The notes: generated from the letters alone by a model not told the origin. Shown: positions 32,740 to 52,407, counted from the first letter of the stretch. The stretch is DNA of 64,000 bases from Candidatus Marinacidobacterales bacterium (GCA_965226495.1 OZ245365.1:4864001-4928000), one strand, 5' to 3'. Made by a program: numbers and translations.

Positions 32740-32843
32740 TGGTACCGGGGGCGGGGATCGCCTGCCAAGCCGTAGCTCGCCAGTCAAGCCGCCGAGCGAA
32801 GGCTGGAACCCGCACGAGGTTTCCCTCAGGGGATTTTAAGTCC
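32740..32843 (-). pseudogene. Displaced 3' part of tRNA-Leu(TAA) (att copy) with a 46-bp insertion in the T-loop
   Basis: Matches 50801-50858 apart from one mismatch and the insert at 32760-32805. Confidence 0.88.
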
Positions 32844-32926
32844 TCTGACGGACCACTCTCGTCCACGCGGAGAGGCAACATGGCTTCAAGACGTGCATCA
32901 ATGAGTCACCGCGCTTCGCAACACCG

Positions 32927-33226: not shown

Positions 33227-33477
33227 CGCCTCAACAGTTTCCTCATCTTTGCCGGGCTCACACCCCTATCGCCGGCTCGGACGTCCTCTTCTGCTTCCCC
33301 CAGGAGGCGGTATAGTTCAAGACGAGCCTGATCGCGCTCGTACGTGGCGAGGCTCATGACAACCAAATCACCCTCCCCGTTTTTTGTGATAAAGACTGGC
33401 TCGCCTGTATCGTGGCAGACCTTCGAGATCTCGAGGCTTTTGTTTCGTAGGTCCGAGATGGGTCGTATTCGTGCCAT
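33223..33477 (-). CDS. Phd/YefM family antitoxin
   Basis: IRPISDLRN...EPVFITKNGEGDLVVMS motif. Confidence 0.92.
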   Translation of the reverse strand: MARIRPISDLRNKSLEISKVCHDTGEPVFITKNGEGDLVVMSLATYERDQARLELYRLLGEAEEDVRAGDRGVSPAKMRKLLRR

Positions 33478-33496
33478 GCGCGTCTCCTTTTTTAGG

Positions 33497-33530
33497 TTTC
33501 AGCATATCATAATTATGATAGGCCAACAAG
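33497..33530 (-). promoter_or_regulatory. TA operon promoter with palindromic operator
   Basis: Perfect 16-bp palindrome TATCATAATTATGATA (33505-33520) within a TTGTTG-17-TATGCT promoter-like arrangement on the minus strand. Confidence 0.65.
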
Positions 33531-33543
33531 AAGACTGTCTCGG

Positions 33544-34545: not shown

Positions 34546-34595
34546 GGTAGCTAGGCTAGGTGGGAGGTCTGGAGTTTGTCAAAGAGGTCCTGGCC

Positions 34596-35522: not shown

Positions 35523-35574
35523 ACCCGGTAAAATTCTAGGGGAAGTTGACGGAGACGGAATCAAAGGAGTGAAC

Positions 35575-37356: not shown

Positions 37357-38324
37357 ACCCAGTCCGAAGCATGCGATTAATTTTGGCGGTGGCGATCGCG
37401 TTCGTGGCGGTCGGGGCGACGCCTTCCTCCGCCCAAGTGCCGCCGCGCTTTTATTGGAAGAGCCTCATCGGCGGGCACGCGGTGCCGGTCATCGGCATGT
37501 CGATGGGCGGCAACGCAAACCCCATCGACCCAGCGCATACCGTGGTCCCGGAAGCGAGCTTCGAGGCCACCGTGGCCCTCGCCGGCTACGCCCATATCTT
37601 TACCCTTTTTGATCGGTCCGCCATGGCGGCGGTGCTCGTTCCCATGGGGCGACTCTCGGGTGACGGGTCGATCTTCGGCCGCACGTTCGGCGAAGACGCC
37701 AGCGGCTTCGGCGATCCGCTGTTCGAGATCGACCTCAACCTCATCGGCCCCGAGCCCATCCGGAACATCCCCGATCTCATCCGCTACGAACCTGGCTTCT
37801 CCCTCGATGTTCTCGCCGACCTGGCTTTTCCTATCGGCGAGTACGACAGCGAAGAACCGCTGAACCTCGGCCAGAACCGTTGGTATGGCCGCGTCGGCGC
37901 CCCCATCGTATGGCAGCTCGGACCGTGGATCCCCGGCCGCCGGACCACCGTAGAGTTGCTACCCTCGGTGTGGCTTTTCGGCGACAACGATGACTTCGTG
38001 GGTCGCAACCTCTCCACCGATCCTATGTTTCAGCTCGACGCTCACTTGACGCGTGATTTGGTCGAGCAGTTCTGGGCTTCGTTCGATGTGACCTGGGTGA
38101 CCGGCGGCCAAGCCAGCCTCGATGGCGTCACGGGTGAGAAGATCGACAACCTCGGGGTCGGTCTCACGCTCGGTTACCAGCTCAATGACAACCTGCAGGT
38201 CACTGCAGGCTACATGGCCACGGTGAACGACGGTGAGCCCACTGACTTGCGCATGGACCGGTTCCGAGTCTCGCTGGTCTTCGGCTGGCACCCGCTCGTC
38301 GAAGGCATGAAGCGGCTCGAGTGA
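37353..38324 (+). CDS. Outer-membrane beta-barrel of the SphA/Phenol_MetA-like transporter family
   Basis: SGFGDP and P-GEYD...LNLGQNRW motifs. Signal peptide. Confidence 0.8.
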   Translation: MNPVRSMRLILAVAIAFVAVGATPSSAQVPPRFYWKSLIGGHAVPVIGMSMGGNANPIDPAHTVVPEASFEATVALAGYAHIFTLFDRSAMAAVLVPMGRLSGDGSIFGRTFGEDASGFGDPLFEIDLNLIGPEPIRNIPDLIRYEPGFSLDVLADLAFPIGEYDSEEPLNLGQNRWYGRVGAPIVWQLGPWIPGRRTTVELLPSVWLFGDNDDFVGRNLSTDPMFQLDAHLTRDLVEQFWASFDVTWVTGGQASLDGVTGEKIDNLGVGLTLGYQLNDNLQVTAGYMATVNDGEPTDLRMDRFRVSLVFGWHPLVEGMKRLE

Positions 38325-39067
38325 GCCGTGACGGCATGAGGCGCACACTCGTGCTGGTCCCGCTGCTCATTGGAAGTATCGCGCAGGCCCAAGATCAGGA
38401 GGACTCGGCACAGTTCTGGGGAACCGCGGTTTTTGGCTTCCCCAAGGGTGACCGCCTCCTTGCCGAGATCCGCACCCAGGCGAAGACACAATACTCGGGG
38501 GCTGAGACGTGGCGAGACCTTGAGGTAACTCCGGTCGTCGAGTACTACCCGAATCGATGGCTAGATGTCGTCGGCGAAGCGACCTTCGGCTGGACCCGAC
38601 AGACGAGCGACGTGAGCACGGTCGAGCTCACGCCGAGACTCGGTGCGCGGTTTCATTTCCTGAGCAACGTCAGGACGATGCTCGATCGGAATCCTCTTGG
38701 CCGGGTCGCTGTCTCCGACCTCGTCCGCTTCGAGCAACGGAATTTCTGGTACTCCGACGGAAGCGCGAGCCACGAGACGCGGCTTCGCAATCGGGTCGGG
38801 CTCAAGGTCGCGCTCAACCACGCCGAGCTAAGCCGCGATGGCACGCTCTACTGGATCGCCGATTTCGAGTTCTTTGTGCCGCTGTCGGGTGACGTGCCGG
38901 AACGCTTCGCGAGTAAGCGGCGCACGCGGGCGGGCCTCGGCTATCGCCGGAATAATCGCTGGCGGTTCGAGGCTCTCTATATTCGTGACACGGCGCGGGA
39001 CACGACCGACGAGGAGTTCGACACCGCCGCCAACATTGTAAACGCGAGGATCAAGATTCTCTTTTAG
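38321..39067 (+). CDS. DUF2490-like outer-membrane beta-barrel protein
   Basis: RFEQR, RLRNR and R-RAGLGYR motifs. C-terminal Phe. Confidence 0.75.
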   Translation: MSRDGMRRTLVLVPLLIGSIAQAQDQEDSAQFWGTAVFGFPKGDRLLAEIRTQAKTQYSGAETWRDLEVTPVVEYYPNRWLDVVGEATFGWTRQTSDVSTVELTPRLGARFHFLSNVRTMLDRNPLGRVAVSDLVRFEQRNFWYSDGSASHETRLRNRVGLKVALNHAELSRDGTLYWIADFEFFVPLSGDVPERFASKRRTRAGLGYRRNNRWRFEALYIRDTARDTTDEEFDTAANIVNARIKILF

Positions 39068-39076
39068 GAGGCTCAG

Positions 39077-39832
39077 ATGTATCGAAAACTGTCTAAGAAT
39101 CGCCAGAAAAGAAGAGAGCAGGCCCCGAAGCTCACGACACACCAGCTTCGAGGATACCAAGTTCCAGTACTGGTCGCGTCGCTGGCACTCTCCTCCCTCG
39201 CCTTCGGCCAGCAAAAAGAAGAATTCGCTCAGGCCCAGAAAGAAAACGGCGCCGCTCTCAAGCAGTACACGTGGAAATCACGCACCGAGATGAAAATGAA
39301 GGGTGAATCGAAAAGCGTGAAGCTCGAGCAGGTACGCTACGACCTAGACGGCAAGCAACAGAAAACGGCTATCGGCGAGCCGCAGAAGCAACAGGCACAA
39401 CAGGGGGGCGGTGGTCGGCGTGGAGGAAGAATGAAAGCGAAGATGATCGAGAAGAAAAAAAAGGAGTTCGCCGAGCTCATGAAGACTCTTGGCCAGCTCG
39501 TTGCCTCCTACGCGCACCTGCCTCCAGACAAAATGCAAGCCTTCGCCCAAAACGCAACGATGGGACCCACTGAAGACGGTGGCGTAATGATCCAGGGCCT
39601 AAACGTCTTGCATCCAGGGGACACGATGAGGGTATGGATCGATCCCGCGAGCTACATGATGCGGCGCGTCGAGATCAACACGGCCTACGATAAGAACCCG
39701 GTGCACTTCGCAGGGGAGTTTCGCCCCGTCTCGGACGGACCGACCTATCCGGCACGGCTTGTGCTCGAGTATCCGGATGAGGAGGTCGAGCTCGTGATCG
39801 AGAACTACGATTACCAGAAAGTCGGGATGTAG
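39077..39832 (+). CDS. Hypothetical secreted protein
   Basis: 251-aa ORF with AGGAGG RBS, in the same run as the sulfatase cluster. Confidence 0.7.
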   Translation: MYRKLSKNRQKRREQAPKLTTHQLRGYQVPVLVASLALSSLAFGQQKEEFAQAQKENGAALKQYTWKSRTEMKMKGESKSVKLEQVRYDLDGKQQKTAIGEPQKQQAQQGGGGRRGGRMKAKMIEKKKKEFAELMKTLGQLVASYAHLPPDKMQAFAQNATMGPTEDGGVMIQGLNVLHPGDTMRVWIDPASYMMRRVEINTAYDKNPVHFAGEFRPVSDGPTYPARLVLEYPDEEVELVIENYDYQKVGM

Positions 39833-39933
39833 TCATGAAGACATATCGCTTCTCACCGATCCTCGCTTCGCTTCTTTTCGCCAGCGGCGCCCTCGCGCAG
39901 GAATCTCCACCGATCCATCCGAAAGTCGGAGGA

Positions 39934-40170
39934 CTATTGAAGGCGGCAGATGTGTGGATGATTCAGACTGGAGACGGCGCGGGCTTCTCGCTCGAATCGC
40001 TCTTTGAGTTGCGGGTTATCGGAAAGATGAGAGGGAAGGACTTTAATGGCGACCGTACGATCGAGTCGAGTGTCCTTGGCTTTGTAGACCTCACCCATGC
40101 CACCCGCACCGAGAGGTGCGAGGATTTCATAGGGACCCAGCTTAGTGCCGGGAGTTAATGACATGGCCAA
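39934..40170 (-). pseudogene. N-terminal fragment of a Hanks-type Ser/Thr protein kinase
   Basis: LGPYEILAPLGAGGMGEVYKAKDTRLDRTVAIKVLP...LNHPHIC, then truncation. Abuts a truncated + strand ORF start at 39835. Confidence 0.85.
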
Positions 40171-40519
40171 CCCTTTGAGCGTGAAAATAGCGCTCTACAG
40201 GCAAAAAATTCAACGGGGGCCGTCGGTCGCTCCCGGGAAGCCGTCAGCTCCTTACTTATGATCCCGGGCCAATGCCTTCCCCCGCTGGCTCGAGGATGCT
40301 ATTCTTCAGCTTCTTGAGCAGGGGAGAACGCAGCCACGGAGCGAAAATCCACCGGCATCGGAGGGCCACCCGCGATCAAAATCCCATCCCCTACTACGGC
40401 AAGCGTCGCTCGTCCGAGCTCTGGGACATGATAGTTCAGGGACGCACGGAAGAATTCCTCCGGGCAGGTCGTTCTAGCGGAGGACGCAATGGTGATCGAC
40501 ATCGCGTAAGGAGTGGATC

Positions 40520-41440
40520 ATGAGGAAAGAAAGACTATTGCCGATAGTGGTAGGTCTCTTACTCGCAGCCGCTTCGACGGCGCAGGACAGGTCGAAATAC
40601 TACACGAACCAGCATCCGGAGGAGTTCCTGCCGCTGGACTGGATTGCATTCTACGACGAGATCGATGCGAGCACGGCGGCGACCCGCAAGGAGTTTCCAC
40701 ATCACCTGGACTTGGCCTTCGGCAACGATCCCAAGCAGAAGCTGGATCTTTATCTTCCCAAGGAAAAGGCGGAGGGCGCTCCCACGTTCTTGTTCCTGCA
40801 CGGGGGCGGTATGCGCGAAGGGGACCGCGCCCATTACGGATACATCGCACGGCCATTTGCCGCCAACGGCATCATCACGGCCGTAGCTAGCTACCGGCTC
40901 GCCAGCAACGGATTCCAATATCCAGCGCAACCCGAAGATGCCGCCGCCGCGGTAGCCTGGATTCATAAGCATGTCGAGGAGTACGGAGGCGATCCGCAGC
41001 GCATCTACGTGGGGGGCCATTCGGCGGGCGCGCTTCTCGCCGCCTACCTTGGCGTGCAAGGCGCCTGGCGACAGAAAAAGGGAATACCAGACGGAGTGCT
41101 CAAGGGCATCGCACCGGTCAGCGCTCCCTACGACGGCGAAGATGCAGAGACGGAAGCGGAGATAGCGACGGCGCGTGTCGTTCGCCGGGCGGGGGAGGTC
41201 GATGCGTCCGTCCCAGATCCCGACAAACCCCCGCCCCGCGCGGTAGTGGCCGTCGGTTCCGTGGAAGCGTACGTAGACTCATCTCGGGAATTCGCCGACA
41301 AGTTGAGGGCCAAGGGCGTGGAGGCGGAGTTCCTCGTTTTAGAGGGCGAGGATCACGCCCAGACAGCACTATCCCTAGGCGATGAAGACAGCGAGCTCTT
41401 TCGCGCCGTGCTGAAGATGATTCAGATTCAGACTCCATGA
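40520..41440 (+). CDS. Secreted alpha/beta hydrolase (HSL-like esterase / kynurenine formamidase-like)
   Basis: LDLYLP, HGGG, YRL and GHSAG motifs. Confidence 0.88.
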   Translation: MRKERLLPIVVGLLLAAASTAQDRSKYYTNQHPEEFLPLDWIAFYDEIDASTAATRKEFPHHLDLAFGNDPKQKLDLYLPKEKAEGAPTFLFLHGGGMREGDRAHYGYIARPFAANGIITAVASYRLASNGFQYPAQPEDAAAAVAWIHKHVEEYGGDPQRIYVGGHSAGALLAAYLGVQGAWRQKKGIPDGVLKGIAPVSAPYDGEDAETEAEIATARVVRRAGEVDASVPDPDKPPPRAVVAVGSVEAYVDSSREFADKLRAKGVEAEFLVLEGEDHAQTALSLGDEDSELFRAVLKMIQIQTP

Positions 41441-41642
41441 CCGACTCGCGGCCGTGGTGCGAAGAATCCCCAACCTGCGCTGGTGGATCGTAGCCCTTCT
41501 TTTCCTGGCCACGGCCATCAGCTACATCGAATCGCTAGACCCTTGCGTCGTCGCGCCGACGTTGCGGGACGAGCTAATAGGGATCTCCAACTGCGGCTAA
41601 GCCCGCATCCTCTCCAGCTTTCTCCTGGCCTACGCGGTCATG
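41437..41642 (+). pseudogene. N-terminal fragment of an MFS (ExuT-like) transporter, garbled
   Basis: IPNLRWWIVALLFLATAISYI...VVAPTLRDEL...ILSSFLLAYAVM across shifted frames. Confidence 0.65.
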
Positions 41643-41940
41643 AAGGGGTAGTCTCTGTAACTTGGTACCGGGGGGGCGGCATTTCTAGAAGTACCTAAGC
41701 GGCGGTACCGGATTGGCGGGCGGCTGGCGGATGACGCTCGGTTACTCTACTGAATCCCCAACCTGCGCTGGTGGATCGTAGCCCTTCTTTTCCTGGCCAC
41801 GGCCATCAGCTACATCGAATCGTACCCTTGCGTCGTCCCGTCGAGCGGATCTCCAACGGCGATTTGAGCCATTTATCGTAAGGCCCAGCGGGGTAATGTT
41901 ACTCTACTTCGTATCCCGTCCGGACGGCGATTTGAGCCAT

Positions 41941-42711
41941 TTATCGCCCAGCGGGGTAATGCAACTTGAACGAGATCCAGAAAAACCCTAGAACAAAGGA
42001 AAGTGCCCAACCAACCGCCCATCCTCCGAATATCACGGTCGACGACATGCCAATCGCTACCACAACACCCACCAATCCAAGGAGAACCAAATATATGACC
42101 GGCTCACCATAACGGTAGTGAAAGGGCCTCCTACGCAACCAACGATTGTTGATGCCTTCCCCTTTGGTCAAGCCGCCTAGCTGCCCGGCCGTTGTCCACC
42201 GGAAATCGATTTCTGAGATGTCCACAATCTCAGCCCGAACCTTCTCCTCATCTCCAGTCGAATACGGAGCCGCTACCAACGTCTCCAGCAACACCTTCGT
42301 ACCAGGGTTGAACAGATCCCACCGAATTTCGACTCTGTGGGGGCTCTCCACGTTCTTGCTGTCGAAGATGCTCTTGTAGTGAAGAGTCACTGTAGAATCG
42401 CTCTTCGTGATCTTGGCTCCGAGAACACGCCCCGGGGCATCCCAGGTCAGTGGGGTAACGATCTCATCCCCCTTCAAAGGTTTTTGCCCCGCGTTCTCGA
42501 TTACGAACGCAAACTTCGTGAGATCCTGGATCGTCGCCTGTTTGAACTGGATCGAGACCTCGTCAGTTAAATCCTCAGCCACCGCCATCATGGAGGTTGG
42601 GCGGAGTGCGCACCAAACAAGGCGGCGCTCCTTCCTGAAGAAGGTTAGGTAGATGGTAGCAAGAGCAGCAAGAGCAAGAACGCCAGTGCCAAAACCTACA
42701 AGAAATTGCAT
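41941..42711 (-). CDS. Hypothetical membrane protein (N-terminal anchor, beta-rich middle, two C-terminal TM helices), element cargo
   Basis: 256-aa ORF containing IENAG-KP...P and FNPG. Confidence 0.7.
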   Translation of the reverse strand: MQFLVGFGTGVLALAALATIYLTFFRKERRLVWCALRPTSMMAVAEDLTDEVSIQFKQATIQDLTKFAFVIENAGQKPLKGDEIVTPLTWDAPGRVLGAKITKSDSTVTLHYKSIFDSKNVESPHRVEIRWDLFNPGTKVLLETLVAAPYSTGDEEKVRAEIVDISEIDFRWTTAGQLGGLTKGEGINNRWLRRRPFHYRYGEPVIYLVLLGLVGVVVAIGMSSTVIFGGWAVGWALSFVLGFFWISFKLHYPAGR

Positions 42712-42746
42712 CCAAACCCCTACTCAGTCAATTGCACCTAATGCTA

Positions 42747-42959
42747 CTACCTTTTCTTCTTCTGGGCACGGGCCTTTGCTTCGCGGGCGGTCTTGGCGGC
42801 GTGTTGCTTTTCTGTAAGAAGTTGTAGGTTGGGAACCCTATCTGATCCACCGTCTTCAAGCGGGACTTTGTGGTCTACTTCCTTTCCTTTCGGAATCTTC
42901 GTCAAACCCTTCTTCTCCAGAAATCGCTCTACAACCTTTGGATCACGCTTGTTCGGCAT
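42747..42959 (-). CDS. Small HNH endonuclease-domain protein (70 aa)
   Basis: EVDHKVPLEDGGSD-VPNLQLL---QHAAKT motif. GGGAG RBS before 42959. Confidence 0.85.
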   Translation of the reverse strand: MPNKRDPKVVERFLEKKGLTKIPKGKEVDHKVPLEDGGSDRVPNLQLLTEKQHAAKTAREAKARAQKKKR

Positions 42960-43692
42960 GATGACTCCCTTCGTTTCTAAGGCTACCCCCCTGCCGGGCT
43001 TCGCGCAAGAAGACCCGGTACCTGAGAATCGCCGGAACCTCCCGCGTAGCATGGCGCGAGTCCAAGATCGGGAACGCCCGGTAACGTACCAGATCGCCGG
43101 GGCGCTGCCGGCGGGTGCTCCCTGACCTAAGGTCAGGGTCAGGCTGTGTTACAGGGGTTTCGATTTCGTGAAAAAAGGACCCAGCCGCCCCGGGGCGGAC
43201 ACACCATGTGAACCGGGAACCCCCTGGGCAAAGCTAGGCCGCTGAAACGGACCCGAGCGTCGAGAACTGGCGGTCCCTGCCGCCGCCTCTAGCTCGGAAA
43301 TGATTCCGTGTCGGCATTCCAACTATTAGACCCTAGTCGGCCGAAAAAAACGGTGATTTCTACGTTGGGGTTTACCTCACATTCTGTTAGGGGGAATTCC
43401 CTACGATCACTCCTCGCGTGGGTCGACGCGCAGTCGTCGGAGGCAGCGTGACGATCCCCAAGGTTCCTAAATCCAGGAACCCCTGCACCGCCGCACCCGC
43501 CCATCGAGGCGGAATTACATGATTACATCCTCGCCCGCGCCGCCCGGCGCAAGTGGCGGAGGTTCGGGTAGGGGGTCCCCGGGCCGCGGCGTCGTCAATG
43601 CTAACCTCTGGTAAAGTATCGGACCAATTGGTCCTATTCTTTTCGGGCTGTCCTACCGTCGTAGGGGCGCCCCTCGCTGCGAGCAAACCCCC

Positions 43693-43724
43693 ATTTCGAT
43701 CGCGCAAATTTGCGCGATCGAAAT
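43693..43724. repeat. Perfect 32-bp palindrome
   Basis: ATTTCGATCGCGCAAA|TTTGCGCGATCGAAAT. The core GCAAATTTGC recurs at 43731-43740. Confidence 0.95.
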
Positions 43725-43863
43725 CATTCGGCAAATTTGCCTCTTGATTTTCGGTTGTTCCGATCGCGGGTAGGGGTTCGCGTCCCGCGCTGCGAGCTTC
43801 AAAACCCCCCCGCTTAGCACATTCGAAGCATAACATCAAGCAAAAGTAGCCTCTGTAACTCGC

Positions 43864-43936
43864 TGTGTTATAATAGGTTACTAAGTTTCTTCAAAAGTCA
43901 AGAACACTTGACTTTTTAGTGTTTTTGTAGTATAAT
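43864..43936 (+). promoter_or_regulatory. Strong sigma-70 promoter(s) with operator-like inverted repeat
   Basis: TTGACT(43908)-17 bp-TATAAT(43931). Second extended -10, TGTGtTATAAT, at 43864-43874. Inverted repeat AAAAGTCAAG-aaca-CTTGACTTTT (43893-43916) covers the -35. Confidence 0.8.
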
Positions 43937-44095
43937 GCCTGCGAACAAAAAATCAATCCTTAGTTTCCTTTCTTGGTGATACTGCCGGCGGGGCTACGTA
44001 GCCCCGCCGCGCGTCATTGTTTCACCTCGAAAGTCGAAGCGTTATCAAGAAAGGTCCCAGAATATGAGAACCACCAAAAAACCGGAGATCCTCCG

Positions 44096-44689
44096 ATGTT
44101 ACAGGTAGTGATCCCGAGCCCTAACCTCCCTATCCCTCACTTCCCGCCGATGCCGATGCCGTTCCGCCGGCCGCCCCGCAAGGATCCGCGTCCGTATATA
44201 CCCCCGCTGCCCGATGGGGGGCGGGGTGATTTCGTCCCCGTCCCGCAGGTTGAGCCGCGGAATTCGGAGGCGGAACCCCAAGCGGCTGCGGAGCTACTCG
44301 ATCTCGAAGTCAGGCGCACATCCGAGCGCGATAGAAAGCGGCGCTATCGCATGCAGCGCCGCCTCGCTACGGGCACCGACCGCCCTCCCCTGACGCCCAT
44401 ACAGGCCCAGCGGGCTCGGATGTCCACGTTCGAGTGGACCCGGAAGAACCCCGAAAAAAAAGCGGCTCAGAACAGGCTAGCGGCTCGCCGACTGGCGGAG
44501 ACGTACGAGGGGCATCCTATCCGGCTAATTGAAGGCTTCCCCACATCGAGGGAAGTTGAAGGGCCTCCAGTTGAGCCTTTAACCAGATTCGAGCGGGATA
44601 ATTTGATGGCTAAATTTTTCCCATCTTGTAATCCGCAAACTGGCCGGATTACAAACCATTTACAAGAATCATTCACTCTTAAACACTGA
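44096..44689 (+). CDS. Hypothetical protein, proline-rich N-terminus and basic helical region
   Basis: Part of ORF 43973-44689. ATG at 44096 follows GGAG. First ORF after the strong promoter. Confidence 0.55.
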   Translation: MLQVVIPSPNLPIPHFPPMPMPFRRPPRKDPRPYIPPLPDGGRGDFVPVPQVEPRNSEAEPQAAAELLDLEVRRTSERDRKRRYRMQRRLATGTDRPPLTPIQAQRARMSTFEWTRKNPEKKAAQNRLAARRLAETYEGHPIRLIEGFPTSREVEGPPVEPLTRFERDNLMAKFFPSCNPQTGRITNHLQESFTLKH

Positions 44690-44940
44690 CACGAGGGGGT
44701 TTACTGTACTATGAAGGCATCTTGTAATCTTGTAACCTGTAATGTGGCTTCCTATAGGGTAAGGGCAAGATACGGTCCCATCCCGTCCCACCACCCCCAA
44801 ACGGGACCGTATCTGGGATTAGTAGTCTATATAGTTATTACAAGATTACAAAATTACAAGATACTATAACTAACAGATAACAACGGATTTACCTCGTAAA
44901 CATCTTGTAAATGAGGATATTACATGAATACAAGATCAAC
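44620..44940. repeat. Origin-like iteron cluster (consensus ATTACAAGAT) in inverted arrangement around a 12-bp inverted repeat
   Basis: About 13 copies. ATCTTGTAATCTTGTAACCTGTAAT (44719) faces ATTACAAGATTACAAAATTACAAGAT (44837). Central AGATACGGTCCC...GGGACCGTATCT. Confidence 0.75.
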
Positions 44941-44980
44941 CCCCTCGCTAGCGCGGAGGACACAAACGAAAGGAAAAAAA

Positions 44981-45499
44981 ATGAGAAAAACCGAACGACA
45001 GGCCCGGAGGTCAGACATGGCTCGCCGGCGGCCCGATGTTGAAACTGAATCCCGCATCACAACACCAGACGACGACGCCCCGGCCCCCTCGTGGGTCAGG
45101 TCAGCTCCCGGCGGCACAGCCGGATGGGCTAGCGCGGCCGGCCTCGTGGGCAAGGTCGCTATTACGATGCCCGAGGGGGCCGGATATTTTTTGCCATTTT
45201 ACTCGAAAGTTTTGATCGTCAATATGCAGCAAGCAAAAATTTCGTATTTGGTCGACAGCGTTTCGTGCTATCACGCGATGAATGGATTTTTCTTCGAGCC
45301 CGACGTCGAAAGCCTCGTGGAAGTTTTGGATGTTGCACAAGAAAACTTTAGAAAGAAAATTGCCCATCTAAATCTTATTGAAGATCAGCCGATAGAAACC
45401 GCGCTCGGCAAGCTGGCGAAATTTCCAATTTTAAAACTTGCTTATGATCGCATCTCGGCCGTCGTTGAATTCCAACATATTGAGAAAGGATCACACTAA
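44981..45499 (+). CDS. Hypothetical protein
   Basis: AACGAAAGGAAA RBS before ATG 44981. Stop overlaps the next start. Confidence 0.65.
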   Translation: MRKTERQARRSDMARRRPDVETESRITTPDDDAPAPSWVRSAPGGTAGWASAAGLVGKVAITMPEGAGYFLPFYSKVLIVNMQQAKISYLVDSVSCYHAMNGFFFEPDVESLVEVLDVAQENFRKKIAHLNLIEDQPIETALGKLAKFPILKLAYDRISAVVEFQHIEKGSH

Positions 45500-46371
45500 T
45501 GCTCGACTTGTTTCGAAGTAATGCACCCCGAAGTTTGTTAACGGCACTCCGGCCGGAAGAAAGTTTTCGCGCCGCGGCAACCGCTGATCTAATCCCAGTT
45601 AATGAGGATCTTTTGGAACTCCTCGAACTCGATGCTACAGACAATTCCGCCTTCCAAATTATTGCACGGGAAGAACGCGATACATTTTTCGCAAACAGCG
45701 GCGAGTGGCTCGAAATTCACGACGTCGAGCCCGGCCTCGAAGGGCGCCCCCGACTCGCAGCAACCCGGGAGCGCATGCGATCGTTGGGCGAGAAATCCAA
45801 AACGATCTTAAATTGTGACGCCGATTTGAACGGGCGTTTCCCTAATTATTTAATCGAAATTAAAAACCGCCGCGCAATGATTTCTGACGAACTCAAACGG
45901 CGCTATGATCTCGACAATTATCCCCAGCAACTTGTGGATGCTTTTGATGCTCGCGACAAGCTCACCGAAGCTCTCGAACAATTGAGACACGAGCAGGTCG
46001 TTCTATACAAAAATAATCGGTTTGATAACGATTTCAAAGATCGCCTGCTAAAATTACAAAACCAACAACTAGATGCTCAAAACGCCCAGCGTAAACTTGC
46101 GAGGACTTTCGATGTCTACGGCAACCCCCAACGGCGGTGGACAACCCCCGAGGAATGGGCGCCGTTCCGCGAGCGGCGGCTACTGCGCGACGAAACTTTG
46201 CGCATAGAAAAACAGCGGGTAGAACTCTCGCCGAATTTGGAGGCGCAAGCTGTTTTATTGGGAACAAACAAAATCGAAAAACCGCCGAGGCCGTACCCGA
46301 AAGCGGAAACGAAACCCCCCGAGCCCTCGGCACCGCCGACTACTTTAGACGGAGGCTTGCTGAGAAAATAA
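45499..46371 (+). CDS. Hypothetical alpha-helical/coiled-coil protein (290 aa)
   Basis: Long ORF, GAAAGGA RBS, TAATG coupling with the upstream gene. Confidence 0.75.
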   Translation: MLDLFRSNAPRSLLTALRPEESFRAAATADLIPVNEDLLELLELDATDNSAFQIIAREERDTFFANSGEWLEIHDVEPGLEGRPRLAATRERMRSLGEKSKTILNCDADLNGRFPNYLIEIKNRRAMISDELKRRYDLDNYPQQLVDAFDARDKLTEALEQLRHEQVVLYKNNRFDNDFKDRLLKLQNQQLDAQNAQRKLARTFDVYGNPQRRWTTPEEWAPFRERRLLRDETLRIEKQRVELSPNLEAQAVLLGTNKIEKPPRPYPKAETKPPEPSAPPTTLDGGLLRK

Positions 46372-46373
46372 TA

Positions 46374-46835
46374 ATGGATAACGTTAGAATAGAATACCCC
46401 CCGGAAACGGCGGAAACGGCGCCCCTAGTTTGCACGAGAATTGCGGACGCGGTTAAACTAAAAGTTGAGCATGCGCAACTGGCGAAGTGGCTCACGGATC
46501 TTGCAGAGCCCCACGTGAAAAAGCATCTCCCCGCGTGGAGGGTCGAAGTTGCAGAGTCGATCACGTCTAAGCAACTCAAAAGAGAATGCCGCGCGTTGAC
46601 TCTCGGTGGCCCGAAAATCATTAAGTTATCGATGTCGGCCCTCGGCAAGTTAACCCGCGAGCAAGTCGAAAACATAATCATGCACGAGATCGCGCACGGG
46701 CTCACACATGACGCGGGACGAGCTACTCGCTTCCATCACGGCCCTGCGTGGCAAGATGCCGCGAAGAATCTGGGGGTGAAGTTTGATACCCGCGATCTTG
46801 TTTTTTCGGATTCTCTTAATATGGGGTTGAAGTAG
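46374..46835 (+). CDS. SprT-like zinc metalloprotease domain protein
   Basis: IIMHEIAH...HHGPAWQDAAKNLG matches the SprT HExxH...HG-W signature. Start at 46374 after the preceding stop. Confidence 0.8.
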   Translation: MDNVRIEYPPETAETAPLVCTRIADAVKLKVEHAQLAKWLTDLAEPHVKKHLPAWRVEVAESITSKQLKRECRALTLGGPKIIKLSMSALGKLTREQVENIIMHEIAHGLTHDAGRATRFHHGPAWQDAAKNLGVKFDTRDLVFSDSLNMGLK

Positions 46836-46839
46836 AATT

Positions 46840-47560
46840 TCAAAGAGACTCACCGCTGCGAGCACTTTGTGATCCAGAAGGATTACAAGACTGAAGCCCA
46901 GGTTTAGGCACCGTGTGGTGCTAGCGTCACCGCCCATCCCAAGTTGGCGGAAATAAAAGTCGCGCCCGATAAAGTTAATGTGCTTAAGGTGTTGTTCACT
47001 TCATTCGCCTATCAATGGTCGGGTCGAACCGCCCGATAGGAAAGAGGTGATCAACTGGTCCGAGGTCCGAGGTGAGAACCCTTGGTTAGGTAAACTTGGT
47101 GATAGGGCGCACCGCTTGCCCAAGAGCTGCCAGCGGTGCATAACCCGTGATTTCGAGGGGGCGTAAACCCCCTCGAAACATTTTAACAAAACATTCTCCC
47201 CCCCTCCCCAAGGGATAAGGCTCACCCGCGACGGGTGAGCCTTAACTTTGGGGCGCGGCGCTCGGCTTGAGCCACGCCCTCGATCAACTGTATTTAGCCA
47301 CAGCGAGGGCGTGTGCCCGCCAGCGTTTGCAGCGTCGAGCCTGCGGGTGTCTGTGCGCTTGAAAGGGATAGGCACGCCAAGAATTTAAGAACGATTTTAG
47401 AAACGCCGGGGGCTCTCTTCCACCCCGGCTAGGGCACACTCCGATTGCCTCGGAGTTGTGCCCGAGGGGATTGGGTGGGTTGGGAACGGGATCACCGTCG
47501 GCCCTCTCCGCGGGGACGCGCTCCCTCCCCCCCGGCCCCTCATCGGACTGCGAGAACGGC
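46840..47560. ncRNA. Candidate large structured non-coding RNA or ssDNA structure
   Basis: No credible ORF. Strong stems at 47109-47139, 47151-47178, 47216-47244, 47273-47313, 47405-47429 and 47432-47463. Confidence 0.45.
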
Positions 47561-47803
47561 GACACTTGACGTTAGTGTTAGCTCGAAGCGAAAAAGAAAA
47601 AAAGATATTTAGTAATACGGTTGCCCTCAACTCGAAGCGGTAGGGACTCGAAAACCACGGAGGGGGGTGGGTGTCTACGCGAGCCCGGCCAGTTTTACAC
47701 TTTGCCGCCACTTTTTTCGAGATATATCAGTAAAAATAATGGTGTCGCGATTTTTCAATCGCGCAAAACCCCCGAAAATCAGGGGAGATAGGAGCGAAAA
47801 CGA

Positions 47804-48055
47804 ATGATTTCCAAGGAAAAGGCATTAGAAAGCGCCCTCTGTCATCACGACAGTCCCGAGCACCGGCTGATGGCCTGCTGGCAGTGTAAAACCGGATACG
47901 GAAATCGAAAACCGGAAGCCAAGTGCCGATCCGCGTTGGTTTTCGGGGGGACCTTCATAACGCCCGAAGGCGAGATGCCGATCTGCTTCGAGTGTAACAA
48001 AGTCGAAGAAAAACGGCGAGAGATGGCAGAGCAAGAGCGATATGGCAAAAAATAA
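47804..48055 (+). CDS. Small Cys-rich (zinc-finger-like) hypothetical protein
   Basis: CHH...H...CWQC...C...CFEC. AGGAG RBS. Confidence 0.65.
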   Translation: MISKEKALESALCHHDSPEHRLMACWQCKTGYGNRKPEAKCRSALVFGGTFITPEGEMPICFECNKVEEKRREMAEQERYGKK

Positions 48056-48479
48056 AGTCGGACGCCCTCGCAAGGGCAGCAAGGTCGATTTCGAGGCGGT
48101 GAGGGATCTCGCGATCCGCGGCGTCGAGCACGCCGATATCGTCGAGCACCTCGGGATCCATGAGCTTGTGCAAGTACAAGAGGCTAGCGTCAAGGTTCGA
48201 GAGACTGTGCGAGCCGGCCACGCGCAATTCCGGATCGCTATACAAAAGAAGCTCTATTCGGAGGGGGTTCTCGAAGGCAAAATTTCCAGCCTAAGAACGC
48301 TTGCGGAGAATTGGCTCGACAGATATGGGGACGCCGCCCCGAAAATTGACGAGGCAGGGATCGTCGAGGAGATCGCCTCCATCATGCAGGCCAACGCCGC
48401 GCTTCACAAAAAACACCACGCCGAAGAACCTTGCCACCTTGCCGGCTGCGGGACTTGCCGAGAACTACATGGGAACTAG
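48042..48479 (+). CDS. HTH protein resembling a phage small terminase subunit
   Basis: N-terminal VGRPRK followed by HTH-like VRDLAIRGVEHADIVEHLGI and helical IQKKLY...G...W. Pattern resembles TerS families; resemblance judged by eye. Confidence 0.5.
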   Translation: MAKNKVGRPRKGSKVDFEAVRDLAIRGVEHADIVEHLGIHELVQVQEASVKVRETVRAGHAQFRIAIQKKLYSEGVLEGKISSLRTLAENWLDRYGDAAPKIDEAGIVEEIASIMQANAALHKKHHAEEPCHLAGCGTCRELHGN

Positions 48480-48831
48480 AAAAAACAAACCAAGCAAAAC
48501 CTCGCAGCCTCGTCCGCGAGGAACTGTGGTCAGCCGAGTATCCGAAGCCCTCGGCGCTTTTTTCGGCGGCGATCTCGCGGATATAACGATCACCCTCGCG
48601 GACGGCTCGCAGATCAAAGTTACGGCGGCGGAGGTAATCCAGCGCGATCAACGTCGAGAACAATTCGAGATCGAGATCGACGAGCCCTTGCGGCTGCGGC
48701 TACTCGAAGCCCGCCGTCAGCACTTCCGAAAACACCACCCCGAAGTTTTAGGATTATCTCGCGGCGAGCCGGTTGACTCTGTGTTCGTCGGCACCTTGCA
48801 AGAATTTTTCCAGCGGCGACGCCGCCGCTAA
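48469..48831 (+). CDS. Hypothetical protein
   Basis: ATG 48469 overlaps the end of the preceding gene. Part of ORF 48301-48831. Confidence 0.6.
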   Translation: MGTRKNKPSKTSQPRPRGTVVSRVSEALGAFFGGDLADITITLADGSQIKVTAAEVIQRDQRREQFEIEIDEPLRLRLLEARRQHFRKHHPEVLGLSRGEPVDSVFVGTLQEFFQRRRRR

Positions 48832-48854
48832 TAACGAAAGGAAACAAAAAAACA

Positions 48855-49067
48855 ATGGCAGATTATGACGGCACAGAATTAGAAAAGCTAGCAGAGAAGA
48901 CGTCGCCCGACGAACTCGGCGACTTGATACTACGCCTCGAAGCGCGGGTCAGCTTAATTCAATTTCGGGTTAACGATCTGGAGCAAAGCGCTTACAAATC
49001 ACAAGAACAGATTCGAGCACTCGAAACGCGCAACGCGGAACTCGAAGCCCGTGCGGAGGTTCTATGA
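48855..49067 (+). CDS. Small coiled-coil protein
   Basis: Leucine heptads. AACGAAAGGAAA RBS identical to the one before 44981. Confidence 0.7.
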   Translation: MADYDGTELEKLAEKTSPDELGDLILRLEARVSLIQFRVNDLEQSAYKSQEQIRALETRNAELEARAEVL

Positions 49068-49216
49068 AGCTCAAGAAAAAACCTCGCCAGCTAGGTCGGT
49101 ATGGGCGCGGCTGGGCTTGGGTTACGAAGAAGAAAAGGAAAAATGGAAGGCACCGGATCCGTGACATACGGCGGGCTCCCGGCGGGCTGGATCTCGATTC
49201 TATGGGGTTGATCTGA
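49064..49216 (+). CDS. Very basic 50-aa protein (below the ORF-track length cutoff)
   Basis: MKLKKKPRQLGRYGRGWAWVTKKKRKNGRHRIRDIRRAPGGLDLDSMGLI. GGAGG RBS, ATGA overlap with the upstream stop. Confidence 0.45.
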   Translation: MKLKKKPRQLGRYGRGWAWVTKKKRKNGRHRIRDIRRAPGGLDLDSMGLI

Positions 49217-49247
49217 AACAATCACGACGTTAAAAGGAGGTGATCTT

Positions 49248-50903
49248 ATGAAAGCCGCAATTTATGCACGAAAATCCACAGCTCAGAACGTATCTGAAGA
49301 TGCCAAGTCCGTCACGCGGCAGATCTCAAGGGGCAAGAAATTCATCGAATCAAAGGGCTGGAACCATGCCGGTGACTACGTTGATGATGCCACGAGCGGC
49401 GGATCGTTGGATCGTGAGGGTCTAAACAACCTATTTCGGGATGCAACAGCGGGCAGGTTTGATGCGGTCGTGTTCTATGACCTAGACCGCTTCTCCCGTG
49501 CCGATGCTATCGACACCCTAGTTAAGCTTCGGGATTTAACAAAACTTGTAGATGTTTGGGAGTATGGGAACGGCCAACAACTGACGGTTGGTGATCTCCA
49601 GAGCATTATGATTCACTTCGTGGCATTCAGCAATCAACAACAGCGAAAATCCGCTAGCAAAGACACCCGGGAGAAGATGCAGACAGCAGCCAGCGAGGGT
49701 CTTGTTACTGGTAACAAGATCTACGGTTTTGACAATATTGGGCCAAGGGGAAAACGGCAGCGGGTGCCGAATGAGAAACAAGCCGTTATCGTCCGGGAGA
49801 TCTTTGACCGCTACTCGCAACGCGAAGGACTAAAGGCAATCGCACATATTTTGAATGATCGGGGTATCCCCTCCCCTAATCAGAGACAGAGCGGTTGGTC
49901 TCCCAGCACTGTCCGCTGCATTCTCAAAAACAGGATCTACCGGGGTGAAGTTATCTATGGACGTTCCCGCCGATGTGACGAGCAGGATTTACCAGAGCAT
50001 CTTCAGGGACTCCGAAAAGAACCGCGTGTCTGTGTTGATGAATCAAATTGGATCATTACGAACATGGATCCGCTGGTTGATCCCAAGACATTCGATCTTT
50101 GTGCCGCACGTTTTGAATCTCGTAAGCAGAAAAGCGGCCAGCGGAGAGCAGCCCGAAACGTGAGACACCTACTGAGCGGGTTACTAACTTGCCCCTGTGG
50201 CGCTTCATTGGAAGCCGTCAAGAGTGGGCAGCGGAAGCAATCGTATTACGTTTGTAGTCGGAGACGCCGAAAGGGCGCTGCGATGTGCTCGAACACGATC
50301 CGGCTGGAAGTAGAGAAGACAGACGCGATCATTCTCGATGAACTAGAAAACAGTGTGCTTAGTCCTAAGTTTGTATCACGGATCTTGAATGAAGCCCTCT
50401 CAGACGGGGAACCCGCTACCCAGCTGGAGGTGGAGCGGGAGCGGCTCGTTTCGGAAATCGGGAATCTGACGAAGGCTGTTGCCATCGGAGGCGGCGATAT
50501 CCCGGAGCTAGTAGCAGCCCTTCGGGAGAGAACGAAGGCACTAACCGCCGTTGAGGCGAAACTAGCAGCCCGGACAGAGAGACCGGATCGGAAGCAACTC
50601 CGGGAAGCCGTCGAGCAGAGGTGTTCGGAGTGGCGGGAGGTTCTCCGCTCGAACGTAGAAGCGGGAAGGGCGCTCCTAAAGTCCCTTGTGGGGCCGCTGG
50701 AGGTTCATACACCGCCACCGAAGGAGCTAGCCGACAAATATGCTTCCTGGTCGGCTGATGTGAAGCCGGAAGGGGTAGCCCTCGAAGTGAGTACTTCAGT
50801 TGGTACCGGGGGCGGGGATCGAACCCGCACGAGGTTTCCCCCAGGGGATTTTAAGTCCCCCGCGTCTGCCATTCCGCCACCCCGGCAAGAATGTAGTCAA
50901 TAA
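49248..50903 (+). CDS. Large serine recombinase (resolvase + recombinase + zinc ribbon + coiled coil)
   Basis: YARKST catalytic Ser, DRFSR, YGF, W-PS-VR-IL-N-IY-G, LLSGLLTCPCG...YYVC...C. RBS AAAGGAGGTGATC. Frame runs through att into the antisense strand of tRNA-Leu. Confidence 0.95.
   Translation: MKAAIYARKSTAQNVSEDAKSVTRQISRGKKFIESKGWNHAGDYVDDATSGGSLDREGLNNLFRDATAGRFDAVVFYDLDRFSRADAIDTLVKLRDLTKLVDVWEYGNGQQLTVGDLQSIMIHFVAFSNQQQRKSASKDTREKMQTAASEGLVTGNKIYGFDNIGPRGKRQRVPNEKQAVIVREIFDRYSQREGLKAIAHILNDRGIPSPNQRQSGWSPSTVRCILKNRIYRGEVIYGRSRRCDEQDLPEHLQGLRKEPRVCVDESNWIITNMDPLVDPKTFDLCAARFESRKQKSGQRRAARNVRHLLSGLLTCPCGASLEAVKSGQRKQSYYVCSRRRRKGAAMCSNTIRLEVEKTDAIILDELENSVLSPKFVSRILNEALSDGEPATQLEVERERLVSEIGNLTKAVAIGGGDIPELVAALRERTKALTAVEAKLAARTERPDRKQLREAVEQRCSEWREVLRSNVEAGRALLKSLVGPLEVHTPPPKELADKYASWSADVKPEGVALEVSTSVGTGGGDRTRTRFPPGDFKSPASAIPPPRQECSQ
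50801..50886 (-). tRNA. tRNA-Leu (anticodon TAA)
   Basis: GCCGGGGTGGCGGAATGGCAGACGC...CTTAAAA...GGTTCGATCC...CCGGTACCA with long variable arm and encoded CCA. Confidence 0.97.
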
Positions 50904-50957
50904 TGGAAGGCATTGTGCCACAGGCCAGGCCGGCAGCACATCGAGACGAGCCCGTTA

Positions 50958-52172
50958 TCAACGACTATCGACGATGTGAGCTCGGGAGATGTTCGCTATC
51001 GAGGTGGTTCCCGCCTGGCGCATGATGCTCTCGAGCTCGCGGCGCAAGATTTCCAGAACCGCTTCCACCCCCTCCTGACCGAAGGCGCTGAGGCCCCAGA
51101 GATAGGGCCTTCCGATGGCAACGGCGTTCGCTCCGAGCGCCAAGGCCTTGAAGATGTCCGTACCTCGGCGGAAGCCGCCATCGACAATAACCGGAATCCG
51201 TCCGGACACCGCCTCGACAACCTCGGGTAGACACTCGATGGTCGACCGGTCGCTGGGTTCTTTGCGACCGCCGTGGTTCGACACGATGATGCCATCCACG
51301 CCGTGCTCGACCGATAGCTCGGCGTCCTCACGAGTCACGATCCCCTTGAGGAAGAGCTTCATCGTCGTCGTGTCTTTGAGCCGCTTGATGTAGTCCCAGT
51401 CCATGTCTGACGGGATCTCGTCTATTACCCCAGAGACGTCGATACCGTCGAACATAGGCCTCCTCTTCACGATGCCAACCCACGAGCTCCAGTCGTGACA
51501 CGTTTCGCAATTGCGGTCGTCTCGCTTGGCGAACCGCTGAGCGGTTTCACGGTTTTCGGCCCCTTGGCCATCGATGGTCAGGGCGACGGCCGGACAACCT
51601 GCCGCCTCTGCCCTTTTTACGAGCCGTCGGGCGATGCTCCACTCGTCGGTCGGATAGAGCTGAAACCAAACGGGGGCGCCGGTCGCTTCCGTGACGTCTT
51701 CGACCGAGGATGTGGCGACCGTCGAGAAAACCTGAAGATGTTTCTTCACGCGGGCGGCTCGGGCCACGGCTAGCTCTCCCTCAGGATGAAACGCTTTTTG
51801 GCTGGACGTGGGTGCCAAGATGATCGGCGTCTCCCACCGGACTCCCAGGAGCTCGACCGACATGTCGATCCGGCTCACGTCGATGAGGCGTCGCACTCTG
51901 AGCTGAAACTTCTGGAAGCCTTCGCGGTTTGCGCGAAGCGTCCCATCGTCGTCTACACCAGTCGCGAGGTAACCGTAGTGGGCGGGGGGTAGGACTTTCT
52001 GGGCGACCTCGCGAAAGTCGAAGACGTTCAGGGCGTCTTTGGGTTGGGTAATTGCCCCACCGTCAGCGCCTAACTGAAGCCAGCCGGGAGCGCCATGGAC
52101 GAGGAGAGGGCTCGCTGCCATGAAGCGCAAGAATTGGCGACGGTTCTCGAGTTGGTCGAAACGCTGCGACAT
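50958..52172 (-). CDS. FMN-dependent alpha-hydroxy acid oxidase (lactate oxidase/LldD family)
   Basis: WFQLY, LKGI, VSNHGGR, DGGFRRGTD-KALALGA and GRPYLWGL motifs. NRRQFL is a Tat-like leader. Confidence 0.92.
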   Translation of the reverse strand: MSQRFDQLENRRQFLRFMAASPLLVHGAPGWLQLGADGGAITQPKDALNVFDFREVAQKVLPPAHYGYLATGVDDDGTLRANREGFQKFQLRVRRLIDVSRIDMSVELLGVRWETPIILAPTSSQKAFHPEGELAVARAARVKKHLQVFSTVATSSVEDVTEATGAPVWFQLYPTDEWSIARRLVKRAEAAGCPAVALTIDGQGAENRETAQRFAKRDDRNCETCHDWSSWVGIVKRRPMFDGIDVSGVIDEIPSDMDWDYIKRLKDTTTMKLFLKGIVTREDAELSVEHGVDGIIVSNHGGRKEPSDRSTIECLPEVVEAVSGRIPVIVDGGFRRGTDIFKALALGANAVAIGRPYLWGLSAFGQEGVEAVLEILRRELESIMRQAGTTSIANISRAHIVDSR

Positions 52173-52203
52173 CACACCCCTCGACAAAACTTTGGAAGAC
52201 GAT

Positions 52204-52407
52204 CTAGGCCGAGTCGACCGCCTTGGCGTCGGGGTCGCTGATGCGTATGGATACGTCGATATTGAAATTCTTTTCGCAGGAGCGACAGTAGTAGATCGAG
52301 CTCGATCGACCAACCGTATGCAGCTGTTCCCAATGGCAATTGGGGCAGATGAACACAAAATTCGCGCTGTAAAGCACAGTGCTCTTTGGCTTGCTCTTTT
52401 CCGACAA
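52204..52407 (-). CDS. Small zinc-ribbon protein
   Basis: FICPNC...YYCRSC, 67 aa, between tRNA-Cys and the oxidase. Confidence 0.5.
   Translation of the reverse strand: MSEKSKPKSTVLYSANFVFICPNCHWEQLHTVGRSSSIYYCRSCEKNFNIDVSIRISDPDAKAVDSA

Follow-up and report, generated by a model that had tools for sequence, protein, structure and literature searches.

The DNA analysed here is a 64-kb window (GCA_965226495.1 OZ245365.1:4864001-4928000) of one 6.3-Mb single-contig genome from a Candidatus Marinacidobacterales bacterium; positions are counted from the first letter of the window. Between 41662 and 50815 lies an integrative element, lodged at the 3' end of a tRNA-Leu gene and equipped with a large serine recombinase (LSR) as its integrase. 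A 13-bp direct repeat, TTGGTACCGGGGG, brackets the element at 41662-41674 and 50800-50812. In its right copy, the repeat spans the CCA, discriminator and 3' acceptor strand of tRNA-Leu(UAA). Because it is anchored on the end of this gene, the repeat is no chance match, and the two copies leave tRNA-Leu(UAA) restored at the edge of the element. The island so delimited is low in GC, 0.50-0.55 inside as against about 0.60 on both sides. It measures about 9.15 kb in this assembly and about 9.0 kb in other samples. Four features define it:

49248-50903, plus strand: LSR, 551 aa (Pfam domains; phrog_95)
41662-41674: attL core, a 13-bp copy of the tRNA-Leu 3' end (repeat search)
50800-50812: attR core, 13 bp (repeat search)
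50801-50886, minus strand: tRNA-Leu(taa), the integration target (ARAGORN; Rfam tRNA, 55.4 bits)

The integrase has three recognisable domains: Resolvase (PF00239, 72.7 bits), Recombinase (PF07508, 73.9 bits) and Zn_ribbon_recom (PF13408, 46.6 bits). It matches the phrog_95 integrase family at 3.5e-90, and its catalytic residues Arg8 and Ser10 fall in invariant columns of a 20-sequence alignment. The closest relatives in a search of 5.8 billion clustered proteins are 38-40% identical. In NCBIfam the best matches are CcrB, XisF and CcrC, at 110 bits against an equivalog cut-off of 900.

The reading frame of the LSR crosses the attR core and ends within the antisense strand of tRNA-Leu; 30 C-terminal residues out of 551 come from codons past the att core, antisense to the tRNA. 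After excision, the predicted tail would be 26 residues long, or 53 in a variant without positions 41741-41897 (see below). The attP rebuilt from the two ends has 7-bp inverted arms, GTACTTC and GAAGTAC, 28 bp apart and centred at the inner end of the core. In the reaction that we envisage, the substrates of the LSR would be the acceptor-stem/CCA end of the tRNA and an attP of about 50 bp, the left arm of which would lie within the 3' coding end of the integrase gene itself. Excision would need a directionality factor, probably one of the small open reading frames (ORFs) 8-11 described below.

The same layout recurs among related recombinases. A scan with the single LSR as query gave no match in collections of genome contigs or viral contigs; alignment-based scans did find loci. 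From a profile scan with an alignment of 19 LSR homologues, taking one genome per species, we kept 80 loci in Acidobacteriota/Vicinamibacterales, Nitrospira, Rokubacteria, Gemmatimonadaceae and others, with a near-full-length LSR match in 59 of them. Of the 80, 39 have an LSR that terminates within a tRNA gene on the opposite strand (33 Glu, 3 Arg, 2 Ala and 1 Lys), and four of 77 IMG/VR viral-contig loci have this arrangement as well, one of them on a 50-kb contig. A C-terminal ..SPxGFEP.. motif, the antisense translation of the tRNA T-arm, is found in 11 of the 19 aligned homologues. Nine of the 39 loci have an 11-20 nt repeat that lies within 3 nt of the tRNA CCA end and recurs 3.9-11.0 kb upstream; by our estimate, chance would supply fewer than one such anchored match. 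Since relatives share the layout and some of them the anchored repeats, the window element falls into a clade of LSRs whose insertion point is the very 3' end of tRNA genes. Dyad symmetry of attP is clear in three of nine relatives (L033, L051 and L060), at 17-18 of 26 positions, a level matched by at most 0.3% of shuffles, and the attP centre of the window element is at the same relative place as in these three. To judge from the sequences, attP overlaps the end of the integrase gene in this tRNA-targeting clade, the window element included.

The other genes and the non-coding features of the element are these, from left to right:

41941-42711, minus strand: ORF1, 256-aa membrane protein with N-terminal and C-terminal hydrophobic segments (by inspection; no family match)
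42747-43052, minus strand: ORF2, small HNH endonuclease (Pfam HNH 22 bits, cut-off 21.4; phrog_333, 8.6e-10)
43053-43972: non-coding block 1, hairpin-dense from about 43600, with a perfect 32-bp palindrome at 43693-43724
43908-43936, plus strand: sigma-70-like promoter TTGACT-17-TATAAT facing ORF4-ORF7 (11 of 12 consensus positions; a consensus match only)
44096-44689, plus strand: ORF4, Pro/Arg-rich orphan, 197 aa from ATG or 238 aa from a TTG at 43973 (no family)
44620-44935: AT-rich iteron region between ORF4 and ORF5, GC 0.43, candidate origin or operator
44924-45499, plus strand: ORF5, 191-aa orphan, translationally coupled to ORF6 (no family)
45499-46371, plus strand: ORF6, 290-aa orphan (coding GC1/2/3, the GC of codon positions 1, 2 and 3, of 0.62/0.40/0.53)
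46374-46835, plus strand: ORF7, SprT-like zinc metallopeptidase with HExxH (Pfam 36.4 bits, cut-off 25.6; phrog_6445, 1e-8)
46836-47803: non-coding block 2, with a hairpin-dense zone at 47000-47600
47804-48055, plus strand: ORF8, 83 aa, CxxC...CxxC, zinc-ribbon-like by inspection (no family match)
48042-48479, plus strand: ORF9, 145-aa helical orphan (Atlas feature lead alone)
48301-48831, plus strand: ORF10, start uncertain, overlapping ORF9 (sub-threshold ROF match in Pfam)
48855-49067, plus strand: ORF11, 70 aa, coiled-coil-like, with the motif AACGAAAGGAAA in front

Four libraries of hidden Markov models (HMMs), Pfam, PHROGs, NCBIfam and PADLOC, were applied to the ORFs. They name three products alone: the LSR, the HNH protein and the SprT-like protein, all of which score best against phage families in PHROGs. 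None of the four libraries recognises a portal, large terminase (TerL), primase/helicase, relaxase or repressor family. No ORF matches a head, tail, terminase or lysis family in Pfam or PHROGs, or a relaxase, coupling protein or other transfer/conjugation family in Pfam, and no PADLOC model rises above noise. The ORFs nevertheless look coding where the libraries are silent: ORFs 1, 2 and 5-12 have GC2 of about 0.35-0.52 with higher GC1 and GC3, and ORF4 has the same pattern in weaker form. ORF5, ORF6 and ORF7 are coupled start to stop, and AACGAAAGGAAA is present twice in the element. ORF2 likely starts at an internal Met, which would give a protein of about 70 aa. We considered whether it might be a remnant of IscB with an upstream guide RNA and rejected this, the score being 22 bits against a cut-off of 175 and the tRNA being the only RNA above the Rfam threshold in the region.

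ORF9 had been described as a helix-turn-helix protein resembling the small terminase subunit (TerS). Its nearest Atlas feature clusters are viral, and some of their members are HTH_23, GP3_package or Sf6_terminase at 0.91-0.94, which is a lead only. AlphaFold2 was run without an alignment because ORF5 and ORF9 have no homologues, and gave a pLDDT of 53 for ORF9 and 43 for ORF5, too low for the models to be of use. ORF6 had no usable Atlas match.

The cargo of the element is nearly without relatives. None of the 11 non-LSR ORFs matches any of the 80 LSR loci (tblastn, E<=1e-3) or any of the 77 viral loci, and phmmer against 14,487 six-frame ORFs of the related loci returned one match, at E = 0.06. 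Among 5.8 billion clustered proteins, ORF4 and ORF9 match themselves alone, as does ORF6 among 1.84 billion representatives (phmmer). In 400 genomes of the phylum ORF5 finds only low-complexity noise. ORF7 has a single weak phage match by tblastn, and one of 400 other genomes of the class encodes a single distant relative of ORF1 that agrees with it in length and membrane layout (E 4.2e-6). At the level of DNA, comparison with two same-genus genomes and 400 genomes of the class gave the tRNA, a fragment of a major facilitator superfamily (MFS) gene and short marginal matches alone; the entire element had no megablast match among 50,697 phage records.

Gene-free blocks account for 1.9 kb, about 20% of the 9.15 kb, and non-coding DNA in total for about a quarter of the element. 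Candidate frames in both blocks are flat for GC1/2/3 and have no coding signature, and the GC of the blocks, 0.59-0.61, is above that of the element's genes. Over 200-nt windows, folding z falls to between -3 and about -7 at 43600-44100 and 47000-47600 on both strands, and is mostly -3 to +2 elsewhere, coding parts included; for whole blocks it is -7.4 (block 1) and -6.0 (block 2). The two strands score alike, so that the signal may come from palindromic DNA as well as from structured RNA. Rfam at E<=1 on both strands placed the tRNA alone above threshold, with three sub-threshold chance matches of the miRNA type. The idea that the blocks are miniature inverted-repeat transposable elements or other repeats was discarded, as the genome holds no other copy.

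A half-site of the palindrome at 43693-43724 occurs again at 47753-47767, just ahead of ORF8, and looks operator-like. The 8-bp word ATTACAAR occurs nine times in the window against 0.96 expected, a count reached by none of 100 shuffles. Six of the nine units lie within 44625-44860, in both orientations, around a hairpin with a 12-bp stem. Palindrome, half-site and iteron region may be operators together with an origin-like or regulator-binding region. The palindrome and the related half-site would then govern two transcription units: one leftward, for the HNH and membrane proteins, and one rightward, for ORF4-7 and ORF8-LSR, from the strong putative promoter at 43908. The iteron/hairpin region (44620-44935) might be the origin or operator used by an orphan initiator that one of ORF4-6 would encode.

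Most of the inventory in a preliminary description of this window, made by a model from the bare letters, stands. This applies to the att repeats around about 9.15 kb, the intact LSR, the small HNH, the SprT-like protease, the iteron cluster, the two non-coding blocks of about 1 kb with their structured parts, and the intact, coupled ORFs with a motif found twice. It applies equally to the statement that no capsid, portal, large terminase, primase/helicase, relaxase or repressor can be recognised, for the four libraries contain no match to any of these.

The element can also be followed in other samples. At least half of the sampled words of the stretch are contained in 13 runs from four studies. 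Contigs of one run per study were aligned on 32500-52400, disregarding joints with sides of 21-30 letters. In these contigs there is no 41662-50800 joint, as expected of an empty site, and no back-joint of a circle; contigs drop rare forms and are uninformative on excision. The depth of the element is about that of its flanks, a weak measure with one figure per contig. Compared with the window, all four runs carry insertions of five bases after 41945 and of four bases after 43902, and all four skip one segment near the left end:

41741-41897: 157-bp assembly-specific stretch, bordered by an 11-nt repeat; its part 41752-41861 duplicates the 5' fragment of the adjacent MFS gene

Within it, 41752-41822 is an exact 71-nt duplicate of 41464-41534, so that the 5' part of a truncated MFS gene is present on either side of attL. 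Because it is missing from the contigs of all four other runs, the duplication is no part of the element, and the MFS-fragment copy was struck from the left end. Either the rearrangement is private to this assembly, or the assembly is wrong here.

To the left, a displaced and interrupted piece of the tRNA-Leu 3' part occupies 32740-32845: 21 nt that match the gene end exactly, a 46-nt insertion and the T-arm/anticodon part. It is followed by a ParE toxin/Phd antitoxin pair at 32927-33477 and about 9 kb of accessory genes, among them, over 33.5-41.6 kb, AraC, a metallo-beta-lactamase fold, a sulfatase, outer-membrane proteins, a kinase fragment, a hydrolase and the truncated MFS gene, with no integrase. 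The region from 32740 to 41.6 kb looks like an older integrase-less island, and the LSR element like the newer, tRNA-proximal member of a tandem array. We take its place next to tRNA-Leu, outside the older island, as a sign of recent arrival, and likewise its GC, which is 5-8 points under that of the host. The hydrolase and MFS fragment of the left flank are far from the tRNA-Leu and FMN dehydrogenase of the right flank, or on another contig, in each of the two same-genus genomes, and comparison with these genomes gave no empty site. One of these, G002, has a 59-nt partial copy (G002:C3:2037072-2037130; L019:1-1500) 1.9 kb from the same tRNA-Leu, with unrelated genes between. The tRNA-Leu gene is an integration hot spot for different elements.

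Two further observations concern the surroundings. The kinase fragment in the older island (39934-40170, minus strand) is a 78-aa N-terminal piece of a Ser/Thr protein kinase and a multi-copy kinase 5' module; the same-genus genomes contain many copies of its DNA, and the depth of the aligned contigs spikes there. Elsewhere in the genome, about 0.9 Mb from the element, the one HK97-type capsid gene sits in a separate small low-GC island. This second island, at about 3,992,000-4,004,000 (L112:11900-20000, L113:1-3300), encodes a tyrosine integrase, the HK97-type major head protein, a D5-like primase/helicase and an insertion-sequence transposase. Its gene set is more classically satellite-like than that of the LSR element.

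What kind of element does this recombinase usually serve? Nine of the related elements can be delimited, and their 91 ORFs were compared with Pfam and 65 of the 91 with PHROGs (the shortest and some ORFs already named by Pfam being left out). Five have a replication gene, and four of these five also have a head, tail or packaging gene. L079 and L084 have no match in Pfam or PHROGs. The named contents of the other seven are as follows:

L033:891-11632: primase-polymerase-like protein; tail-fibre-like domain
L036:163-10855: DnaB-like helicase; tape-measure-like match, weak
L051:2730-11686: AAA_25 helicase; major head protein
L060:545-10788: DnaB-like helicase; TerL-like protein; MqsRA
L068:867-11653: DnaD-like loader; HNH; prohead protease; M78 peptidase; SIR2
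L042: tyrosine-type integrase (Pfam)
L093: RRM protein

The first five of these are 9-11 kb long, have repeats of the tRNA-Glu 3' end and lie on contigs of metagenome-assembled genomes (MAGs) of Acidobacteriota. They are candidates for LSR-driven phage satellites: several relatives are too small for phages, yet carry a replicase and one head or packaging gene, which makes them satellite-like.

Eleven further loci were chosen for their full 10-kb upstream flank, and 100 of their ORFs, each of at least 100 aa, were examined. TerL is present in L058, L082 and, weakly, L030, and a portal in L082. TerS (phrog_57) occurs in L081 and L105 and a tape-measure protein in L075 and L081, and a primase, helicase or initiator in L030, L031, L045, L075, L081 and L105. 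L037, L039 and L089 have Ser/Thr kinases, a transposase and families of unknown function, and nothing else phage-like. Among these loci, two from Nitrospira (L081:3189-11707 and L105:3940-11707) have, immediately before the LSR gene, a Rep-O-like initiator or primase and a phrog_57 small terminase; the LSR frame itself terminates within tRNA-Glu on the opposite strand. L105 adds a DnaB-like helicase and L081 a tape-measure-like protein; no element boundaries were found within the 10-kb flank of either. Because relatives carry TerL, portal, TerS, capsid and replication genes, this LSR clade rides on ordinary phage-type elements, and some of the relatives are probably prophages. The preliminary description had suggested collecting homologues of the recombinase and comparing gene order. 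Standard primases/helicases, TerS, TerL, portal and capsid do accompany the related LSRs; cargo in common with the window element was found beside none of them. Of the outcomes that the preliminary description itself had named as refuting its proposal, a gene set without conservation in other places is what was observed, and the one that concerns homologous elements with ordinary phage genes applies in part.

We conclude that the stretch holds an intact, non-autonomous integrative element of phage ancestry. Beyond this, we tentatively favour, at a probability of about 40%, a helper-dependent island of the satellite type driven by its LSR. It would spread between cells in the particles of an outside phage, and the HNH protein and the small helical ORF9 would be the sole candidate packaging helpers. 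Several observations weigh against this reading. Pfam, PHROGs, NCBIfam and PADLOC contain no match to a replication, packaging, capsid or AlpA-type gene in the element, and the TerS-like reading of ORF9 put forward in the preliminary description is backed by no HMM match, no PDB sequence match and no BLASTP similarity to the TerS of L105. The rest of the genome contains no second copy of any part of the element, and no cos, pac or operator shared with a resident phage is visible. The 6.3-Mb genome has no TerL by four models (PF03354, PF03237, phrog_9 and phrog_2), so that a helper would have to come from outside. The cargo has no relatives in the searched collections, and there is hence no evidence that the element ever spread. 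The dyad symmetry of the rebuilt attP extends to 12 of 26 positions, which 27% of shuffles match, and is not significant alone. Lastly, in contigs from four studies the element occupies one and the same site and shows, as do its flanks, 0-3 differences per contig; such near-identity would suit a fixed passenger no less than a mobile one.

Such a passenger is what the most serious of the rival readings proposes: an LSR prophage or satellite that lost its replication and packaging genes and persists as a cryptic, immobile remnant, perhaps kept for a function of its cargo. The 1.9 kb of gene-free DNA, the missing autonomy module, the constancy of site and sequence across four studies, the want of TerL in the genome and the TerL, portal, TerS and tape-measure genes beside related LSRs would all agree with it. 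Decay, though, should leave frameshifts, whereas the LSR, both att cores and the eleven other ORFs are intact, coding-like and coupled at their starts. The gene-free blocks are hairpin-dense, with matched palindromic sites and a near-consensus promoter, and the GC of the element is still far from that of the host. We regard a remnant as doubtful. It is unlikely that the element is instead a cargo or defence island unrelated to phage particles, merely inserted by the LSR and transferred by transformation, vesicles or an unrecognised conjugative helper. Its HNH and membrane-protein operon and its ORF5-6-SprT operon would then be accessory systems, for instance for abortive infection. Two compact operons with a nuclease, a membrane protein and a metallopeptidase would suit such an island; small LSR relatives also have toxin-antitoxin and SIR2 cargo, and the lone relative of ORF1 lies in an unrelated chromosomal context. 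PADLOC and the Pfam conjugation families, relaxase included, are silent, however, and the three named proteins find their best matches among phage families.

An autonomous minimal integrative replicon, in which ORF4-6 would include a new initiator acting on the iteron/hairpin region and the circle would replicate without a helper, seems least probable of all. The AT-rich gap between ORF4 and ORF5, with iterons in both orientations around a hairpin, speaks for such a replicon; against it, Pfam, PHROGs and NCBIfam give no Rep, HUH, primase or helicase signal, the contig depth of the element (a weak measure) is no higher than that of the flanks, and no homologues make a family of the putative initiator. 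To return to the helper-dependent island, its boldest form is also improbable in our view: a working minimal satellite of an Acidobacteriota host, devoid of any recognisable protein for replication or packaging and living on about 1-2 kb of cis-acting, hairpin-dense DNA or RNA plus orphan proteins, within an undescribed guild of LSR satellites of the CCA end, in which integration and excision swap the C-terminal tail of the integrase. The 'new class' of phage satellite put forward as a candidate in the preliminary description is unsupported, because the gene set is a singleton, conserved in none of the 80 LSR and 77 viral loci, because no sign of a helper, of excision or of packaging was observed, and because the integrase module is common to ordinary phage-type elements. 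What the window holds is a one-off mobile island, not a demonstrated new class.

As a single instance, the element is of value for the leads that it offers. What is newly seen is a recurrent layout, an integrase gene that runs over attP and ends in an antisense tRNA, in Acidobacteriota, Nitrospira and other soil and water lineages. If the pairing of LSR and tRNA is real, such pairs would be ready-made short att sites in conserved tRNA genes, of possible use for genome engineering in phyla that are hard to handle. Several of the 9-11 kb relatives with a replicase and a single head or packaging gene would, if they are what they seem, be candidate phage satellites; to our knowledge, though no search was aimed at this point, no phage satellites have been described so far in the phyla of these relatives. 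The element itself would be a compact test case of an island made almost entirely of orphan genes and structured non-coding DNA. Our literature search turned up no account of an LSR gene overlapping attP and terminating within an antisense tRNA. Serine integrases that target tRNA genes are little documented (PMC4383910; 10.1101/2020.11.07.368316). The consulted portions of two further reports (PMC12884075 and PMC10484663) contain nothing specific on LSRs at tRNA genes, and their supplements may list such cases.

The Islander paper, a database paper of 2014, states that tyrosine integrases were the sole kind known at the time to act at tRNA genes (PMC4383910). Like the islands treated there, the window element has an intact tRNA gene on one side and a displaced copy of the tRNA 3' end on the other; it differs in that its integrase is an LSR and its repeat just 13 bp. 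In Thermotogota, serine recombinases of the 'group 1' proviruses have been proposed to target tRNA-Glu, -Phe and -Pro (10.1101/2020.11.07.368316). The proviruses share with the window element an LSR-type integrase at the element's end, insertion beside a tRNA and a recombinase that alone is conserved amid variable cargo. They lie most often at tRNA-Glu, as do 33 of the 39 LSR relatives found here. They are described as full proviruses with terminase, capsid and tail genes, whereas the window element has none of these, targets tRNA-Leu(UAA) and has an LSR at most 40% identical to any protein found. Islands of Dehalococcoides use a CcrB-like LSR, DsiB, at the tmRNA gene ssrA (McMurdie et al., PMC3146451). 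The window element resembles these islands and SCCmec with CcrAB in that an LSR inserts a small island of cargo, marked by a short direct repeat, at the 3' end of the gene for a small stable RNA. The window element has no second small recombinase (DsiA or CcrA) and no ParB, RecF or Mom module, unlike the DsiB and CcrAB systems as described, and its target is a tRNA rather than tmRNA or rlmH.

PICI, cf-PICI, P4-like, PICMI and PLE satellites are about 5-18 kb long, integrate site-specifically and have phage-like small genes without a full virion set. The preliminary description had contrasted the element with satellites that typically use tyrosine integrases; this does not hold universally, as the PLE of Vibrio cholerae uses an LSR. 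Size, site-specific integration, phage-like small genes and an LSR as in PLE are thus shared, and the HNH and a putative small DNA-binding protein of the window element recall the cos-packaging accessories of satellites. Unlike PICI, cf-PICI and P4-like elements, it has no AlpA-type regulator/excisionase, master repressor, primase, helicase or Rep family in Pfam, PHROGs or NCBIfam, its iteron region being without a known initiator; nor does it have a TerS by HMM, or a capsid, capsid-size or redirecting gene such as Psu, Sid or Delta in Pfam or PHROGs. The elements L051, L060, L068, L033 and L036 encode recognisable helicases or primases, unlike the window element, and share no non-LSR protein with it. 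L068 has a small HNH, as the window element does, and all five belong to the same LSR clade at 30-37% identity and agree with it in the overlap of integrase 3' end, att and antisense tRNA, in the position of the repeat and in size class.

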